A stretch of 30,333 nt of DNA from a virus. Below the pieces are notes generated by a model. The model saw nothing but the letters and a program-made list of their open reading frames with translations, did not search any database and was not told the origin of the DNA. How positions within the stretch are numbered: position 1 is the stretch's first letter; each line of letters opens with the position of its first letter. A program made the position numbers and the translations under genes. The stretch lies in UHGV virus genome UHGV-0122274. The stretch is one strand, 5' to 3'. Shown here piece after piece: positions 25 through 7,900 of the stretch.

Positions 25-390
25 TCGCGTGTCCACTATTCGCGGGTAGGATCAGTTGAACTTCTCACTACGCTAAGCTCTATCACCAAACCAGTATCAG
101 AGTTTGTTTTTGCCGGGCGCAACGATAAGAAAAAGCCAATCTGCGAGAACGCGGTATTGCTTGTGATCAAACAAATCGGCTATGAAGGTCTGGAAAGCGG
201 TCACGGATTCAGGCATGAATTCAGCACTATTATGAACGAGCACGAATGGCCTGCTGACGCTATTGAAGTGCAACTGGCACATGCCAACGGCGGATCTGTG
301 CGCGGGATTTACAACCATGCTCAGTATCTCGATAAGCGCAGAGAAATGATGCAGTGGTGGGCGGACTGGCTTGATGAAAAGGTGGAGTGA
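25..390 (+). CDS. int: Tyrosine integrase (P4/IntS-like), C-terminal catalytic fragment only; reading frame closed upstream by in-frame TAG at 22-24
   Basis: Frame 1 translation ...EFVFAGRNDKKKPICENAVLLVIKQIGYEGLESGHGFRHEFSTIMNEHEWPADAIEVQLAHANGGSVRGIYNHAQYLDKRREMMQWWADWLDEKVE contains the box II HGFRH, LAHA and Y-x-H tyrosine recombinase motifs. The N-terminal catalytic half is absent from the window. Confidence 0.6.
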   Translation, partial: SRVHYSRVGSVELLTTLSSITKPVSEFVFAGRNDKKKPICENAVLLVIKQIGYEGLESGHGFRHEFSTIMNEHEWPADAIEVQLAHANGGSVRGIYNHAQYLDKRREMMQWWADWLDEKVE

Positions 391-541
391 TCGACCTTAA
401 CCACTATCGAATATCACAAATCCTTGCAATCCAGTGCAAAGATTTGTGTGCCAGAGTTTTTCTCATCAACTACCGCAAGTATCGATCGATTGAGACTTGG
501 ATGATAGACTTCATGCCTTTGATTATTAGCTGATAGAAGAA

Positions 542-904
542 ATGTTAAAGCTATTTGCAAAGTACACCTCGATTGGTGTGCTGAACACACTTATACACTG
601 GGTGGTTTTTGGTGTTTGTATCTATGCCGCGCATACCAATCAGGCTCTGGCAAACTTCGCAGGTTTTGTTGTGGCTGTGAGTTTTAGCTTCTTCGCGAAT
701 GCAAAATTCACATTCAAAGCATCAACTACAACGATGCGCTACATGTTATATGTCGGGTTCATGGGAACACTGAGTGCAACTGTTGGATGGGCTGCTGATA
801 GATGTTCACTTCCTCCAATTGTCACTCTTGTCACCTTCTCCGCCATCAGCCTGGTGTGCGGTTTCGTCTATTCAAAGTTCATTGTCTTTAGGAATTCAAA
901 ATGA
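542..904 (+). CDS. gtrA: GtrA, bactoprenol-linked glucose translocase (flippase) of the O-antigen glucosylation cassette
   Basis: 120-aa small hydrophobic protein with about 4 predicted TM segments, directly upstream of and overlapping a GT2 glucosyltransferase; classic gtrA position and size. Confidence 0.85.
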
Positions 905-1818
905 AAATTTCGCTTGTTGTTCCGGTCTTCAATGAGGAGGCCGCAATACCAATCTTCTACAAAACGGTGCGAGAATTCGACAAGTTAAAGCAGTATGAAG
1001 TTGAAATAGTTTTCATCAATGATGGCAGTAAAGACGCAACAGAATCAATTATCAACGCGCTTGCGATGTCAGATCCTCTTGTAGTTTCACTGTCATTCAC
1101 AAGGAATTTTGGTAAAGAGCCAGCTTTGTTTGCTGGACTTGAACATGCAACTGGCAATGCAGTAATACCTATAGATGTTGATCTTCAGGACCCAATCGAG
1201 GTTATCCCGCACCTGATAGAGAAATGGCAGTCAGGATCTGACATGGTTCTTGCTAAGCGATCAGAACGTTCTACTGATAGTCTATTAAAGCGGAAAACAG
1301 CGGAGTGGTTCTACAAACTACATAACAAAATCAGCAATCCAAAGATTGAGGAAAATGTTGGTGATTTTCGGCTGATGAGCCGCGATGTTGTCGAAAACAT
1401 AAAGAGAATGCCAGAACGAAACCTGTTCATGAAAGGCGTGTTGAGTTGGGTTGGTGGCAAGACAGACGTCGTTGAATATGTCCGTGCTGAACGTGTTGCG
1501 GGAGATTCAAAGTTCAATGGCTGGAAATTATGGAACCTAGCACTTGAAGGTATTACCAGCTTTTCAACTTTTCCTCTCAAAATATGGACATATATAGGTT
1601 TGTTCGTCGCCGGTACAGCGTTCACGTATGGCTCGTGGATGATTATTGATACGTTAGCATTTGGTAACCCCGTTAGAGGTTATCCGTCAATTCTGGTATC
1701 GATTCTTTTCCTTGGAGGCATCCAACTTATTGGAATCGGTATTCTTGGTGAATATGTTGGCCGTATATATATAGAAACAAAAAAACGACCAAAATATTTT
1801 TTAAAGGATAAAAAATGA
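901..1818 (+). CDS. gtrB: GtrB, bactoprenol glucosyltransferase (GT2 family)
   Basis: 305 aa; N-terminal [13 protein letters not shown]...INDGSKD GT2 signature, DxD-like IDVDLQD, C-terminal pair of TM helices; start overlaps gtrA stop. Confidence 0.9.
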
Positions 1819-3299
1819 ATTTAAAAAAAGAAATAAACGCCAATAGCATTAAGATAATGGTTATAGCATTTATAACGTCTTTACTCGTTTATTTTCAAAA
1901 CCTAACCAACTTTTCTATATCAATAGACACAGAGTACGCTTTTTTTTCATGGCCTAATGAAGGTATTTTATGGTGGATTTCTCTAGGGCGGTGGGGTTCA
2001 GCAATAATCGACTATATATTTAGGGTAAACGCCTACACGCCGGGGTTTACAACTCTCGTAATGTTAGCGCTTAATGTTATAACTGCTTTCTTATTAGCTG
2101 TAAACACGTTTAAGCTCCTTAGTACAAGGATAATGTTTGCTATTATTTTTGTATCATTTCCGCAATTTGCTTATCAAGCTGAGTTTGCTCAGCAGTCCGA
2201 TACCGTTGCATTAGGTCAACTTCTCGCATGTATATCAGGTCTGATACTTTATTCTTCAATCTTTGGAAAAGACAAAGTAAATATAAAACTTCTATTTATT
2301 GGGGTTTTAGTGCTTACCTTTTCACTAGGAATATATCAATCACTAATCTCTTTCCCTGTCGTTGTATTTTTAATGCAATTCATTGCAAAATGTAATGAAG
2401 AATGCAAAAAGAGAATCATTAAATGTTTTTCAATATTTTCGCTTGCAATAATACTTGCTACATCCATTTATTATATAATAGTTTTTTTAAGTCATGCTAT
2501 ATTCAACGTAACCACACCCACATATCTTAAAGACACCTTTCACTGGCTAAAAGAACCTGTATACGAAACGCTTCAAAGGGTGAGTGAGGTTGTGATATCA
2601 ACACTCACAGGTGATTATTATTTTGGGGCTAGCATTATTCCGTTCATGGTGGTTCCCGTTGTTTTTCTTTCCTATAGTCAGGTAATCAATCATGATAAAA
2701 ATATTATAAAATTAATATCAATATTAACATTAGCAATCAGCCCCTTCTTTGTGGTTATCGGACTCGGGGGCATACAGGGCCCCAGAGTTTTGCTTGGGTT
2801 ATCTGTAACATTCGCTTTTCTATTTGCTTTCGCTATAGAAAAATTAAAAACATGCAGCAAAGTAAAAAGCACACTGTCAGCCCTAATTTGCACAATTGTA
2901 GTTTACTATAGTGCATCAACAGTAAATATGCTCTTTTACTCTGATGCAATGGCAAGAGAGATAGATTCCAACATAACTAACAGGATATTGTCCCAACTAC
3001 AAAGTAAGTATGGTAACTTTAATCCGTCAACGGATGTCGTAAGTTTCATCGGTGCGTATCCCACATACAACCCTTGGAAAAAAAATAATTCTGACACCTT
3101 TGGTGAGTCAATGTTTAGTTTTTCAGGAGGAGATCCTCGTAGAATTACAAAATATGCAGCAATGATAAGTGGGTTTTCTTTAAATTTACACATTGCAAGT
3201 AACGACGAAAAAGAAAAATTAAAACTCATTCCGTCATGGCCTGACGCGGACTCAATAACAGTTATGAATGGAATTTATTTCATTAAGCTAGGAGATTAA
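1815..3299 (+). CDS. Serotype-specific O-antigen glucosyltransferase (GtrC / Gtr-type family), polytopic membrane protein
   Basis: 494-aa highly hydrophobic protein, third gene of the gtr operon with ATGA overlap to gtrB; markedly AT-rich coding sequence. Confidence 0.75.
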
Positions 3300-3304
3300 T
3301 AAAT

Positions 3305-3331
3305 GGCAAGAGGTGGTTTCTACCTCTTGCC
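3305..3331. terminator. Stem-loop (9-bp perfect stem ggcaagagg / cctcttgcc) between convergent gtrC and tailspike genes; candidate bidirectional terminator
   Basis: Perfect inverted repeat read directly; lies between the gtrC stop (3297-3299) and the tailspike stop (3370-3372). Flanking U-tracts are weak. Confidence 0.35.
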
Positions 3332-3369
3332 TTACAAAGTCAACCAAACTTTTTATTATGAACAGAAAT

Positions 3370-5550
3370 TTAGCCTGATGCTAATCTAGCAACAATACCA
3401 GCCATAACAAAAACGATTATCTGGTCATAATTAAGTGCGTATGCATCATTCACTTCATCATGGTCTATCATTTTGTATTTTCTGTAATTAAGCCCATGTT
3501 TTTCCATTACTTTTATTACATCTTGAACTATGTACCCGATATTAATAGGTGAGTCATCGCCCATTTCCTCACAATCTTTAAGCCACATGAATGTACCAGA
3601 GCATAGTGCAAGCTCTTGTGCAGCAGCGATTTCATTCTCTGTAAATTTCTTAAGCTTGGTTTTCTTGCGTTCATCAGATGTTGTTAAAACCCCACCTGCG
3701 GAATACACAAGTTTCCATAAACGAGTTGAATCACCGTTGGTATATGTGTTGCTTATGTGAGGCCCGCAAGCGCCATTAATGTCTAGGGGAAATACTGGAT
3801 TATCTGTATTAACACCAACGTTACCACCGCGAGGATTAATAACTACTTGGTAGTTATTGCCGGATGCATCACTCCCCTGAATAAAGCCGCCGTTAGAGCC
3901 AGAGTTGCTCAAACATCCAAACTGTAGCTCTCTAGCACCGTCTGTGTATTGCGTCCTGAAAGAACCTAGCTTAAACATTGTGCCATCTGACATTGGTGCA
4001 TTGGTTTTATTACTAGCATATAAAAGTGCAGATGGAGATGACCCATCATTCATAATCCCAACAAGGCCGCTTGGTGTAATCTCCATTACTTTATGCGGTT
4101 TATAGGCACCATCGCCCCCGTTATAGAAACGGATAGGATAATATTTACCATCCCCGGAAATTCCTGCCCTTATTTCGTATTCACCAACTGCTTTAGCAGA
4201 GATAGTTAAATTCTCCTCATCCACGCCTGTAGTTTTCTGCACACGCAATGTACTTATTTGTGAGTTAATATCATCCCTCATTTTGTATTGCGCGTTTGTG
4301 GCATTTATAGAGGTATCCTGCAAAGTGCACGTATTGCCTTTATTAGATATACTGACGACGTTACGAAGTGTTCCGTTAAGCCAGAATTTATACGTACCAT
4401 TTCCATATCCGAAGAAAAAGAATGGATCTCCTGATTTTCTTGTACATACCCCATTTACCACGTCGCATATACCCCCACCTGTGGTATATACGTAATGGTA
4501 TCTAGAATGAGCACCTATGGCAGCAGTAAGGTTTCCCCCTCCAATTTCTGTAACAGAAATCTGGTCTGCTGAGGTTAATGCAGTAATTACCAGTGCCCTG
4601 TCAAAAGCATAAATTGCATCACCTACTGCCCAATTAGTAATGTCGAAAAGCGAGCCACTTTCACGTATCAGTACGTTCTGTGACTGATGTACAAGTTGAC
4701 CTTGTGCCGCAGAGCCATAAATAGCAACTTCTGATGGGTTATAATTTTTGCTAGTTTGAATGCGCATCCAGTTAGCGTGCCCATCTGATGATAAGAACAT
4801 TCCATCACCAGAATCCATAAGAGCGCCTCCACCAACTTTAAAGCCACCCATATTCGCAGTTGTTCCCGCAGAAACAATTCCCGCACCGAATTTAGTTTCG
4901 TCTCTTCGGCGGTACTGAACGTTTAAAAATGCAGAAAAGGATATGGCTGGCGTTAATATTGCCTCAGAGTCAACAATTAACGTGGGTAGTTTTGCCCACA
5001 CCAGGGCGATAGGAGTATTGCATACATAATTACCAGCAGGAACATATAGTGTTGTGCAACCGGAAGGAAGCGCAGCAATCATTGCTGCCCATAAGGAACT
5101 CTCGTCAGTGCCGTCACCCATAATCCCATAATCACGGACATTAATGAAATCAGCTAGCGCAAGCTTACCATTCCTGATAGTAAGAGGCCGATCAAGCAGA
5201 TTCTGTCTTAACTGGTCAGGGTCATACTTCAGCACATTAGGGAAATAGAACTGCTGCGTGCCATATGCATCATAAACAGCCATCGAATGACCTTGCACGG
5301 TAACGAATTTGGCAATCTGTCCGTTATATACAGGATATCCGGCAACGTTAATGATGATTGGCTGTGCAACAGGAATGTGAGAACCGTCTTCGTTCTCCAC
5401 ATAAACCTGAATCTGGTTTTCAGGATTTACCGGGTCAGTGTCAATTTTACCGATATAAATTTTGCCATTGGCTACGGCTTTAAAAGAACGAGCCATAGTG
5501 AAGAGTTGCGAAGGCATACTCACTACAACATTGGCTGTAATGTCTGTCAT
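3370..5550 (-). CDS. Tailspike protein: P22 gp9-like N-terminal head-binding domain, central beta-helix-like receptor-binding/depolymerase domain, C-terminal intramolecular chaperone (S74-like) region
   Basis: N-terminus [43 protein letters not shown]... matches the P22 tailspike head-binding domain from memory; [13 protein letters not shown] motif typical of pectate-lyase-fold beta-helix starts; C-terminal [10 protein letters not shown] resembles the S-D-x-R-x-K autocleavage motif; GGAG RBS upstream. Confidence 0.85.
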
Positions 5551-5608
5551 CTAATTTGCTCCAGATGCAAGGAATCGCCGCAGCATGGCTACGGTGAATT
5601 TTTGGCAT

Positions 5609-5631
5609 AAAAAAACCCAGCCGAAGCTGGG
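5609..5631 (-). terminator. Intrinsic terminator (cccagc-TTCG-gctggg stem-loop followed by U7) between gp16 and tailspike
   Basis: On the - strand, a 6-bp GC-rich stem with TTCG tetraloop followed by TTTTTTT; located between the gp16 stop (5738) and the tailspike start (5550). Confidence 0.55.
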
Positions 5632-5737
5632 TCGTTGCGTTGGTTATCTGTCAGTAGTTATGTACTGAAGGAGGTAATTCTTATTCTTAAGTCTTATCAG
5701 GATTTGGAAACACAGTTATATGCAACAGTAGATAAAA

Positions 5738-7900
5738 CTATTCATATTCATTCATACCGCTTAACGAGGCGACAATACCAGCTCTCGACAAGCGATTGAA
5801 TTCATCGCTACCAATAGCATCGCGTATTGCTTTTACGGCGGCTTTATTTGCCATAAATCTGCGTTCCGCCGCCGCTAATGCTTCTTTACTTCCGCCAGCT
5901 CTTACTGCTTTCGTGGCTTCCTGAACTGCTTTCTCTATCGCATATCGACCGCTACGCGTGGTGGCAATTTTAGATACAGCACCTTTTAACCCGGCGCCAA
6001 CTAAAGCACCTGCGGCAGCGCCTGCAATGCCCCCTCCTGCTCCACCAACAATGGCACCTGATGTTGAGTTGGCAATTGCATTTAACACTGTTGATGTGAC
6101 GCTGGATAAACCGGCATCCAGATCGCGTAGTACATTGGCAGTTCTCCCTGTTCTTTCAATATACTGCTGAGGTTTCACTGCTGCTCTTGCAAGAGTGCCA
6201 TATGCATCAGCAATTCTTCCGAGTTCTGAGGAATATCTGCTAATGGCTTTTACATTTTGTGGGGTAAGTATCCCTGCGATATGGTTAATTCCTGCTGCAT
6301 CAGATTTGCCACCACGTACACCATGCGAGATAGCATCCTGCAACATTGATGATATAGCAGGAACACGCTCTGATTCTGGCAGCGCGCGGATCATAGAATG
6401 GAATCCAGCAGGACCATTAAGACCTTTAGCTGACGATGATTGAAGAGATTTTACTCCATTCGTAATCAGTGCATCTGTTGCCAAATCACGCCCGAAAACA
6501 GACTCTGCACTCTCTTGTGCTGATAACCTCGCTTTAGACAGATCATTAGCTTTTTGCCAGTCATCAAGAAATCCGCCGTTTTCCGCCATTGTGCGCATAT
6601 CATCAGTAATTGCCCGGCGTATTTCCCCTGCTCTCCTTGCCGCATTTGCCTCTCCGCTACGCTTATATTTTTGCTCCGCATCAGCAAATTTCGCTCTCCA
6701 TGCTTTCATGCCATCAAATGTTACTCCACCTTGATTGTTTGCCTGAACAAACTGTTTCATTTCAGGAGTAAGCGGTATGCCAGCAGATCGCTCTGCCTGA
6801 ATAACGGCATTACCATTTAGCATTCTTGCTTTTTGATTTGGCATTGTTGACCGCACGTCATCCCATGCCGCGCGCTCAGCATCCTTCATCTGATCAAGAT
6901 TTTGAAGAATCCTTTGTTTTATAGCCACACTTTTTTCTGATGCCGTTCCAGATGCGGCCCCAAATTCATCAAGGTTTCGACTTAACTTTGATGATATTTC
7001 GTTAAATGCTGCCTGATGGGCATCCTGAACAATCCCTGGTGTTGATGCCAATGCGCCTTCGGCTTGTGCAATTCCACGACTTCCAGATCGCATTCCTGGT
7101 GTTAATGCGTTTATATCAATTCCAGCAGACTCAGCCGCTTTTGCTACATCTTCGGACACATTAGCGGCCTGACTGGCAATTGACTGACGCCCAGCACCTG
7201 ACTTTGCCATCCTGGAAACATCATTAGCAGAATTCAGTGCTGCACCACCAAGAGCCTGTGAAACCCTTGGCGCAATAACGCGCCCGACACCTGAAAGAAC
7301 GCCTTGAGCACCAATATTGATACCACCGTTAATGGCAGCATTTTGTGCAAAATCACCCTCCTGATTTGCAGCATCAGCAAGAGAACCTGCAATCATGTTT
7401 CCTGCGGAACCGATGTCTCCTGCGAGCTTTGCTGTCGCTCCAGCAGCTTTTGCCGCTGTGCCAATTGGCAGGAGATACCCACCAAATGTTTCACCGGCTT
7501 GCGCCCAACGGTCTGTCGGTCGATCGACAGGGCGATAAACATCATCCAAAACCTTGGGGCCACCAAGCCCCTGGCTGATTGCATTAATCAGACTTGCGCC
7601 ACCCTGCAATACGTCAAATGGTATGTTTACCAGACCACGACCAGCCTGTTCTGCAATTTGCCCTGCACTTTGACCACCTGTGAGCCAATCGCCAGCTTGT
7701 TGCATCAATGATGGTTCTTCTTTCTGCTGCTGATGCGGAGGGTATGCTGCATAAAACTGATCTCTTGCTTCAGCCCATTTGTCACCAGCCTTAGGGGCAA
7801 CAACCTCATCAAAATATTGCGCTTGAGCCTGTGCTTTCTGTTCTTCAGTTAACGCCTGATACTGTGGAGAGGCGATAACATCTTTCCATGCTTTAGCCAT
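5738..7900 (-). CDS. Ejection (injection) protein, P22 gp16-like, enlarged (720 aa)
   Basis: Position is last of three ejection genes before the tailspike; N-terminus [24 protein letters not shown]...; Gly/Ala-rich low-complexity stretches. Confidence 0.75.

Follow-up and report, generated by a model that had tools for sequence, protein, structure and literature searches.

Identification of gtrC in a gtrABC operon

The open reading frame at positions 1815 to 3299 of the viral genome UHGV-0122274 is likely to be gtrC, coding for the third enzyme, which determines specificity, of an O-antigen glucosylation operon (gtrABC) in a P22-like (Lederbergvirus-type) prophage of E. coli, and to be a module that was swapped into this operon. 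The window referred to below is the whole stretch of DNA that was analysed, 30,333 nucleotides in length. As judged from its sequence, the gtrC product is a distinct GtrC type within the GtrII (PF14264) family, an ordinary addition to a known kind of enzyme, and it would very probably add a glucose side-branch to the host O-antigen. The features in and around the operon are the following.

55 to 390, plus strand: 3' remnant of intS, last 112 codons or so (Pfam Phage_integrase match)
391 to 541, plus strand: gtr regulatory/leader region (alignment, GATC counts)
542 to 904, plus strand: gtrA, putative Und-P-glucose flippase, 120 aa (Pfam GtrA_DPMS_TM, E 1.8e-13)
901 to 1818, plus strand: gtrB, bactoprenol (Und-P) glucosyltransferase, 305 aa (Pfam Glycos_transf_2, E 2.7e-29)
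1815 to 3299, plus strand: gtrC, type-specific transferase of the GT-C fold and GtrII family, 494 aa, with about 11 TM helices, D38-x-E40 and an α/β C-terminal domain at about residues 399-494
3305 to 3331, no strand assigned: stem-loop of 10-12 bp between two convergent stop codons (terminator scan)
3370 to 5550, minus strand: tailspike, 726 aa (Pfam Head_binding, E 7e-67, and Peptidase_S74)

The gtrC gene starts with ATG, stops with TAA, and lies directly downstream of the conserved gtrA and gtrB genes in one operon of the P22-like prophage. The gtrA/gtrB and gtrB/gtrC junctions are both ATGA overlaps, which suggest that gtrB may be translationally coupled with both of its neighbours. The Pfam matches of all three products were above threshold. 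GtrA was 89-97% identical in amino acid sequence to GtrA of the Sf phages and HF4s and to K-12 YfdG, GtrB was about 87% identical to S. flexneri GtrB, K-12 YfdH, and P22 GtrB, and jointly the two proteins were 78-97% identical to those of Shigella, K-12, and P22. Upstream of the operon, an IS3-family element, the end of which occupies positions 1-54, truncates intS at position 55; from there on the window was 99.9% identical to intact intS loci but positions 1-54 were not, and these matched multi-copy IS3-like elements. Positions 1-54 were rejected as an attP or a tRNA because they are the end of this IS3-family element. The argW/intS integration context is common to K-12 CPS-53 and strain 74-2. 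Downstream of the operon, the tailspike gene was said in a preliminary description of this DNA to converge on gtrC, and it does so, the two genes being separated by a spacer of 70 bp in which there is a strong hairpin. As RNA this hairpin folds with -20.7 kcal/mol on the plus strand (z -5.4) and -17.6 kcal/mol on the minus strand (z -5.0), and in the P22 annotation there is a terminator at the equivalent place. It is the probable terminator of the tailspike transcript and possibly terminates the gtr operon as well.

The P22 gtr operon has the same organisation as that in the window, and the promoter-proximal block of the leader is conserved with the K-12 CPS-53, SfII, and P22 cassettes, including, in P22, the GATC at -58. 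This GATC, at 484-487, is the single one in the leader, and another is found at -153, at the end of int. A simple scan of positions 391-541 found no consensus sigma-70 promoter. Phase variation of gtr operons by Dam and OxyR involves four GATC sites, in two pairs within OxyR half-sites, in the stretch of roughly 115 bp that precedes the transcription start (PMC2909390, PMC3688519), and that of P22 gtr requires all four GATC sites (PMC2909390). In P22 the four sites lie in two pairs, -135/-122 and -71/-58, whereas the intergenic region in the window keeps only -58. P22-type Dam/OxyR phase variation was rejected for this operon since the signature is incomplete, with one of four sites present, and epigenetic ON/OFF switching is not predicted.

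Base composition and origin of gtrC

It had been claimed that gtrC is far more AT-rich than the remainder of the window and indeed its GC content was 34.6% compared to 49.6% at positions 7901-30333. Relative to all 1485-nt segments downstream of position 5600 the GC content of gtrC had a z of -10.4, and in a sliding-window check the 1485-nt segment with the lowest GC in the entire sequence started at 1741. The long A/T runs said to persist throughout the gene were also found, with A/T-only runs of at least 8 bases at 14.1 per kb in gtrC and at 1.0 per kb elsewhere, and gtrA and gtrB were, as claimed, intermediate (43.8% and 41.0% GC, respectively). The number of G+C in the first 60 nt of gtrC, given as 14, is actually 13. 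That the morphogenetic genes are roughly balanced in composition was right for the genes past about position 7900, the only ones with a balanced GC3 of 0.43-0.66, but not for the gp16-like gene at 5738-7900, in which GC3 was 0.322; low GC3 was thus not confined to gtrC and was also found in gtrB (0.377) and in the tailspike gene (0.353).

The gtrC product is a very hydrophobic membrane protein rich in Ile (11.7%), Leu (10.5%), Phe (8.5%), Lys (5.5%), and Asn (5.1%), and the AT-richness of the gene could be a by-product of this rather than a signature of foreign origin. When the protein was recoded with the codon usage of the phage's morphogenetic genes the GC content reached just 43.8%, so that the amino acid content accounts for about 6 of the 15 GC points. 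We consider this explanation very improbable, however, because the recoded gene had a GC3 of 0.546 whereas that of gtrC as observed was 0.306, because gtrA, which codes for a membrane protein as well, had a GC3 of 0.467, and because host wzx/wzy genes showed a comparably low GC3 of 0.22-0.30. It also does not account for the homology to other cassettes breaking exactly where gtrC starts: DNA homology of seven other cassettes to the window ended at 1776-1820. A pure amino-acid effect is therefore largely refuted by the synonymous-site analysis, and the foreign origin that had been proposed from composition is upheld by GC3 and by the break at the start of the gene. Because the AT-richness extends to synonymous sites and the break falls exactly at the gtrB/gtrC junction, we regard gtrC as a swapped-in module. 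In compositional history it is unlike the phage backbone and similar to the wzx/wzy genes of O-antigen loci. The gtrC genes of SfI, SfII, SfIV, SfV, HF4s, K-12, and P22 had GC contents of 27.6-38.0%; AT-richness is generic for gtrC genes and for wzx/wzy, is to be expected, and is not diagnostic of anything special here. The role of the gene together with its AT-richness is the textbook pattern for gtr cassettes and leaves current understanding unchallenged.

Family, topology, and fold of the gtrC product

The sole Pfam match of the gtrC protein was PF14264, Glucos_trans_II (73.0 bits with a cutoff of 30, E 3.1e-20), with residues 29-334 on positions 3-316 of the 317 in the profile; GtrII itself, from the Shigella flexneri phage SfII (serotype 2), scored 106.6 bits. 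By BLASTP the gtrC protein was 25% identical to SfII GtrII with 48% positives (E 1e-28), and with residues 8-494 on 9-477 the two proteins, of 494 and 486 aa, were alignable end to end. GtrI, GtrIV, GtrV, K-12 YfdI, and HF4s GtrC gave nothing significant by BLASTP, and P22 GtrC gave a weak partial match (27.5% identity over 178 aa, E 9e-6). Near-identity to a characterised Gtr, named in the preliminary description as something that would refute it, was thus absent in this comparison, the best being GtrII at 25%. When phage records were searched by tblastn, GtrII was again the best match (25%, E 8e-22), followed by Enterococcus phage proteins at 22%, and nothing exceeded 25%. When the cassette was compared by megablast with 50,697 phage records, there were matches to gtrAB and int and none across gtrC, and among 1.84 billion representative proteins the closest relative outside the cluster of gtrC itself was 36% identical. 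GtrX and GtrIc were covered indirectly, by the phage-wide tblastn and the search of 1.84 billion proteins, which gave nothing closer.

Hydropathy predicted about 11 hydrophobic helices, with K4, K5, and K13 at the N-terminus and a hydrophilic C-terminus of 120 aa, and the secondary structure of the AlphaFold model agreed with this topology, so that the polytopic membrane topology expected of the protein is predicted by both. It has been shown experimentally that GtrI, GtrII, and GtrV have their N-terminus in the cytoplasm and a large C-terminal domain in the periplasm (PMC3259042), and the gtrC product is predicted to be a polytopic inner-membrane protein of the same topology. Its confident model has the GT-C transmembrane fold. 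No PDB chain had a detectable sequence match to the protein and no GtrC-family structure was among the PDB hits. The GT-C enzymes of known structure (Pmt4 9e61, STT3B 6s7t, AglB 3waj, ArnT 5f15, PglB 5ogl, AftA 8if8, and ALG9/ALG12) have, like the gtrC product, one or more conserved acidic residues in the first extracytoplasmic loop and use a polyprenyl-phosphate-linked donor, as the gtrC product would. The gtrC product differs from them in being smaller, with a short α/β C-terminal domain, and is only 7-13% identical to them. The earlier reading of the gene as coding for a type-specific glucosyltransferase agrees with the gtrA-gtrB-gtrC order, with the Pfam assignments, and with the GT-C fold. 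The Salmonella family II or BTP1-like 'GtrC' is of an acyltransferase type with an acyltransferase-3 domain instead of GT-C, and this type was ruled out here by PF14264 being the sole Pfam match and by the GT-C fold.

The D38-T-E40 motif of the gtrC protein aligned onto D38-G-E40 of GtrII, at identical positions. Among 103 homologues D38 was invariant and E40 was at least 90% conserved. Both residues lie in the loop at 33-77 between TM1 and TM2, which has short helices at 39-45, 48-56, and 60-69. Glu40, Phe414, and Lys478 are critical residues of GtrII according to experiments of Lehane 2005, as cited in PMC8509367. In the gtrC protein E40 is kept, F414 is opposite M433 with F434 adjacent to it, and K478 falls past the C-terminus and has no counterpart. 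A block FPQxxYQxEFxxQxD and a C-terminal block SWPxxDSI are also conserved between the two proteins. We infer a catalytic role for D38 and E40, and in a family without a solved structure the confident GT-C model and the invariant D38-x-E40 provide testable catalytic residues.

Like gtrC, gtrII in SfII occupies the slot after near-identical gtrA and gtrB and has a low GC content (31.8% compared to 34.6%). SfII differs in that gtrC is carried here by an E. coli prophage of a P22-like podovirus and in its hosts, as the gtrC carriers are not strains with S. flexneri-type O-antigen. GtrI, GtrIV, GtrV, YfdI (CPS-53), the HF4s/ε34-type GtrC (DUF6056), and P22 GtrC are likewise encoded by AT-rich genes in the slot after conserved gtrA and gtrB and share with the gtrC product a general role in the three-step Gtr pathway; unlike the gtrC product, none of those tested is in PF14264. 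In Salmonella, GtrC families are more than 96% identical within a family and have very low identity between families, less than 18% in one example (PMC3688519). By this criterion, 25% identity makes the gtrC product a GtrC type different from GtrII, and therefore its acceptor or linkage need not match that of GtrII.

Proposed mechanism

The general model of Gtr action has three steps (PMC7685785). GtrB would form undecaprenyl-phosphate-glucose at the cytoplasmic face of the membrane and GtrA would flip it to the periplasmic face, as expected from the roughly 87-97% identity of these proteins to characterised homologues; Und-P-Glc is the presumed donor because GtrB is 87% identical to the Shigella and K-12 enzymes. 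The fold, motif, and family of GtrC suggest that it would then move the glucose onto one particular sugar of the O-antigen repeat unit being built, with the acidic motif D38-x-E40 acting catalytically from the first periplasmic loop. Such a modification would alter the O-epitope of the lysogen and probably also mask the receptor of the phage's own tailspike, giving superinfection exclusion. The 'serotype-specific' label and the modified O-antigen on the lysogen are both things that we infer. Assigning the acceptor and linkage of the gtrC product would fill one small gap in predicting serotype from genotype, and the matched pair of tailspike and GtrC could be of use in studies of superinfection exclusion.

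Carriers of gtrC and the probable acceptor

This gtrC type is rare among complete genomes, being found in four of 5,426, all E. coli, and the exact gtrC protein, which belongs to a cluster of 83 members, was present in 121 collection blocks. Across the four complete genomes the ORF was intact at 494 aa with 0-4 nt differences; the substitutions were 1 synonymous and 2-3 non-synonymous, too few for an estimate of dN/dS. All four shared a block of gtrC and tailspike at 99% identity, as did most of a set of 10 contigs. The O-antigen loci of the four carriers were O32 in strain 74-2, O4 in strain ES9, an unnamed O-cluster, and a deletion with no O-cluster between galF and gnd, and only one of nine O32 genomes had gtrC. 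We rejected inferring the acceptor from these loci because the four genomes represent four different states; gtrC does not look tied to a strict one-serogroup acceptor. The tailspike combines a head-binding domain of the P22 type with a β-helix part for receptor binding and has a Peptidase_S74 chaperone at its C-terminus. Its strong match, phrog_28871, is without assigned function, and inferring the host glycan through tailspike homology was also rejected since the receptor-binding part was at most 25% identical to that of any isolated phage.

That one gtrC and tailspike block is found in hosts with O32, with O4, with another O-antigen locus, and with the O-cluster deleted could mean that the acceptor is something other than the O-antigen of one serogroup, such as a motif that many O-units have in common (the GlcNAc end initiated by WecA), the enterobacterial common antigen, the LPS core, or a capsule or colanic-acid-type polymer recognised by the co-inherited tailspike, which besides Peptidase_S74 has a match at residues 1-410 to a PHROG annotated 'colanic acid degradation'. 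This we think improbable, because every experimentally characterised Gtr(type) enzyme works on O-antigen (PMC7685785, PMC3688519), because frequent recombination at the O-antigen locus lets prophage remnants outlast a serogroup switch, and because the sample is of four complete genomes only. A related proposal, likewise improbable, is that the tailspike, in its receptor-binding part, and GtrC form one co-inherited receptor and receptor-masking module (about 1815-5200) that is mobile among P22-like backbones and integration sites and is directed at a glycan motif common to several O-antigens or at a non-O-antigen polymer; if true, this would explain the 99-100% identity across these four kinds of E. 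coli.

The cassette could also be a silent passenger, without a phenotype in many or most of its current hosts, either because the cognate acceptor is absent after a switch or loss of the O-antigen or because there is no expression, for example by H-NS silencing of AT-rich DNA, and the O-antigen of the lysogen would then be unmodified. The four O-antigen locus states, one with the cluster deleted, and the single gtrC carrier among O32 genomes are consistent with this, and in Salmonella no change of the LPS was detected for GtrC families II and IV (PMC3688519). The prophages are also often degraded: that of 74-2 has large deletions, ES9 retains remnants, 19451123 has an IS1 beside gtrC, and intS of the window has an IS3. 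We find it unlikely, however, given that none of the complete genomes has a shortened ORF, substitutions being very few and the catalytic residues conserved, and that gtrA and gtrB are intact too. In addition, the cassette persists even in prophages that have otherwise decayed, and this survival suggests that there is selection for its retention.

The gtrC product and its relatives

The gtrC product has a GT-C fold and belongs to the GtrII/PF14264 family, as an uncharacterised and rare GtrC type. The gene lies among the following features.

1-54, end of an IS3-family element (54 nt matching a multi-copy element)
55-390, intS remnant (last ~112 codons only)
542-904, + strand, gtrA (120 aa; Pfam GtrA_DPMS_TM)
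901-1818, + strand, gtrB (305 aa; Pfam Glycos_transf_2)
1815-3299, + strand, gtrC (494 aa in the ORF listing; Pfam Glucos_trans_II, PF14264)
3305-3331, hairpin of 10-12 bp between the convergent stops of gtrC and the tailspike gene
3370-5550, - strand, tailspike gene (726 aa; Pfam P22 Head_binding and C-terminal Peptidase_S74 chaperone)
5738-7900, gp16-like ejection-protein gene with low GC3

The Pfam match of the gtrC product to PF14264 scored 73 bits (cutoff 30) and PHROGs labels it 'GtrC-like O-antigen conversion'. GtrA and GtrB are 89-97% and about 87% identical, respectively, to the proteins of the Shigella phages SfI, SfII, SfIV and SfV, of coliphage HF4s and of K-12 CPS-53 (YfdG and YfdH), and 78% and 87% identical to those of P22. 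GtrC itself lacks the near-identity to a characterised Gtr protein that would have told against the preliminary description: BLASTP gave at best 25% identity, to GtrII of SfII (residues 8-494, E 1e-28), which is a full-length relative and the only characterised protein tested that also has PF14264. P22 GtrC matched weakly and partially, and GtrI, GtrIV, GtrV, YfdI and HF4s GtrC gave no significant BLASTP match. Salmonella GtrC families share >96% identity within and very low identity between families, <18% in the example given (PMC3688519), and by this criterion the window GtrC is a separate type. It is thus neither a previously characterised protein nor a new kind of system. Of 5,426 complete E. 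coli genomes, four carry its DNA, 99.7-100% identical. The 90%-identity cluster has 83 members, one of them (P0010) identical to the window protein, nearly all from E. coli with one Atlantibacter and one Klebsiella record, and all are named just 'glucosyltransferase domain-containing protein'. An exhaustive HMMER search of 1.84 billion representatives returned 682 proteins with E <= 1e-3, of which the nearest over its full length is 36% identical. A 32%-identical PF14264 relative lies behind gtrA and gtrB on the Kosakonia sp. H02 chromosome (locus L028, 3727-6455); this trio, which adjoins thrS-infC with no phage genes nearby, is a chromosomal, non-prophage form of the cassette.

In the alignment with GtrII, D38-T-E40 of the window protein falls on D38-G-E40, and Glu40 of GtrII is one of three experimentally critical residues according to Lehane 2005 as quoted in PMC8509367. 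Among 103 aligned homologues D38 is invariant and E40 is conserved in at least 90%. The critical F414 of GtrII corresponds to M433, with F434 adjacent, and the critical K478 lies beyond the end of the window protein. Hydropathy predicted about 11 hydrophobic segments, in keeping with the polytopic topology expected earlier, together with an N-terminus rich in Lys, two ~45-aa loops and a hydrophilic C-terminus of 120 aa; the last agrees with the 'large periplasmic C-terminal tail' that GtrI, GtrII and GtrV are known to have (PMC3259042). The AlphaFold2 model built on the homologue alignment was very confident (pLDDT 95.1, pTM 0.94). When it was used in a fold search the score dropped to 7.3 beyond the leading matches, and Foldseek agreed with that search; a PDB search with the sequence detected no chain. 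Under the established three-step Gtr model (PMC7685785), GtrB would load glucose onto undecaprenyl phosphate and GtrA would flip the loaded carrier, as their high identity to characterised proteins suggests, and GtrC, going by family, motif and fold, would pass the glucose on, in the periplasm, to one specific sugar of the O-unit.

gtrC and the tailspike as an exchanged module

DNA homology to seven other cassettes breaks off at 1776-1820, precisely where gtrB and gtrC overlap, and on the far side of gtrC it returns only in the head-binding domain of the tailspike, whose gene converges on gtrC as described before. The unit that was swapped therefore consists of gtrC and the tailspike's receptor-binding part. 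This supports the earlier view of gtrC as foreign and horizontally acquired, as the exchange fits modular acquisition; the low GC on which that view leaned is, however, seen in every gtrC examined. The gtrC-tailspike block is 99% identical across the four complete carrier genomes and occupies at least three contexts, namely intS at argW/yfdC, bioA-ybhB, and a thrW/proA-linked prophage. Comparison of the chromosomal contexts (loci L016, L017 and L021 against L018-L025, and L008) indicates that the gtrABC-tailspike module moved between P22-like backbones. The bioA-ybhB copy adjoins directly, without an adjacent integrase, and the thrW/proA-linked prophage has a different integrase. Among the proteins encoded by 50,697 deposited phage genomes, none is >25% identical to the receptor-binding part (3370-5205, residues ~115-726). 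This part matches phrog_28871, of unknown function, at E 6e-266, and its C-terminal Peptidase_S74 domain is an intramolecular chaperone.

O-antigen loci of the carriers and the acceptor

The O-antigen locus was in four different states in the four complete carriers: 'O32 family' wzx/wzy in 74-2, 'O4 family' wzx/wzy in ES9, only IS1 in the galF-gnd interval of E89 (L012, NZ_CP121157.1 2,892,912-2,894,296), and a third, unnamed rml-containing cluster in 19451123, in which wzzB is split by IS26 (L015). Among nine O32 genomes, just one contained gtrC. E89 is presumably rough; its gtrABC and tailspike block is intact despite the absent O-antigen cluster. The four states allow no inference of the acceptor from the hosts, nor is the linkage inferable, and a modified O-antigen on the lysogen, called probable earlier, is therefore plausible, although unproven. 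The acceptor may be a motif common to several O-units, or it may be something other than O-antigen. It is also possible that the carriers hold prophage remnants that outlasted O-antigen switching, and several of the carrier prophages are visibly degraded. We consider it rather improbable that tailspike and GtrC form a co-inherited module whose target is broad or is not O-antigen.

Base composition

The AT-richness of gtrC reported earlier was borne out: GC is 0.346 in 1815-3299 against 0.496 in 7901-30333, gtrA (0.438) and gtrB (0.410) are intermediate, the lowest 1485-nt window of the whole sequence starts at 1741 (z = -10.4 against windows beyond 5600), and stretches of 8 or more bases made up of A and T alone have 14 times the density in gtrC that they have elsewhere. 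The first 60 nt hold 13 G+C and not 14. When the same protein was written in the codons of the phage morphogenetic genes, GC rose from 0.347 to 0.438 and GC3 from 0.306 to 0.546, and so amino-acid composition explains only a part of the deficit; about 6 of its 15 GC points are due to the protein being rich in Ile, Leu, Phe, Lys and Asn, and the remainder to synonymous sites. The morphogenetic genes had been called roughly balanced, which is true only of genes beyond about 7900 and not of the tailspike and gp16-like genes, whose GC3 is 0.353 and 0.322; with gtrB (0.377) they fall below the 0.52-0.55 or so that the codon usage of the phage itself would give, and the atypical block therefore measures ~7 kb (901-7900). 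The GC of other gtrC genes is 33.4% in SfI, 31.8% in SfII, 32.6% in SfIV, 33.3% in SfV, 38.0% in HF4s, 27.6% in K-12 (yfdI) and 31.8% in P22. Low GC is thus the expected signature of the class, common to every gtrC examined, with nothing specific to this gene. The wzx/wzy genes of the carriers have GC of 27.6-36.2% and GC3 of 0.22-0.30.

Expression and prophage context

The gtrA/gtrB and gtrB/gtrC junctions each have an ATGA overlap, in keeping with translational coupling within the operon. The hairpin at 3305-3331 (folding energy -20.7 kcal/mol for the + strand and -17.6 kcal/mol for the - strand, z about -5 each) is likely a terminator, and P22 has an annotated terminator in the equivalent place. 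In 19451123, IS1A (L013, 14946-15643) is inserted between gtrC and the tailspike gene, where the right arm of this hairpin lies, corresponding to about 3329-3340. Upstream of gtrA (391-541) the promoter-proximal block is conserved with P22, SfII and K-12 CPS-53. Dam/OxyR phase variation of the P22 type requires four GATC sites (PMC2909390), at -135, -122, -71 and -58 in P22, whereas the window keeps only that at -58; we would therefore not expect epigenetic switching, and infer that expression of the operon is probably constitutive.

A P22-like (Lederbergvirus-type) prophage makes up the remainder of the window, and its structural genes are ~96% identical to those of coliphages APC_JM3.2 and IME10. 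Its truncated intS adjoins the IS3-family end, and the prophage is probably unable to excise with its own integrase.
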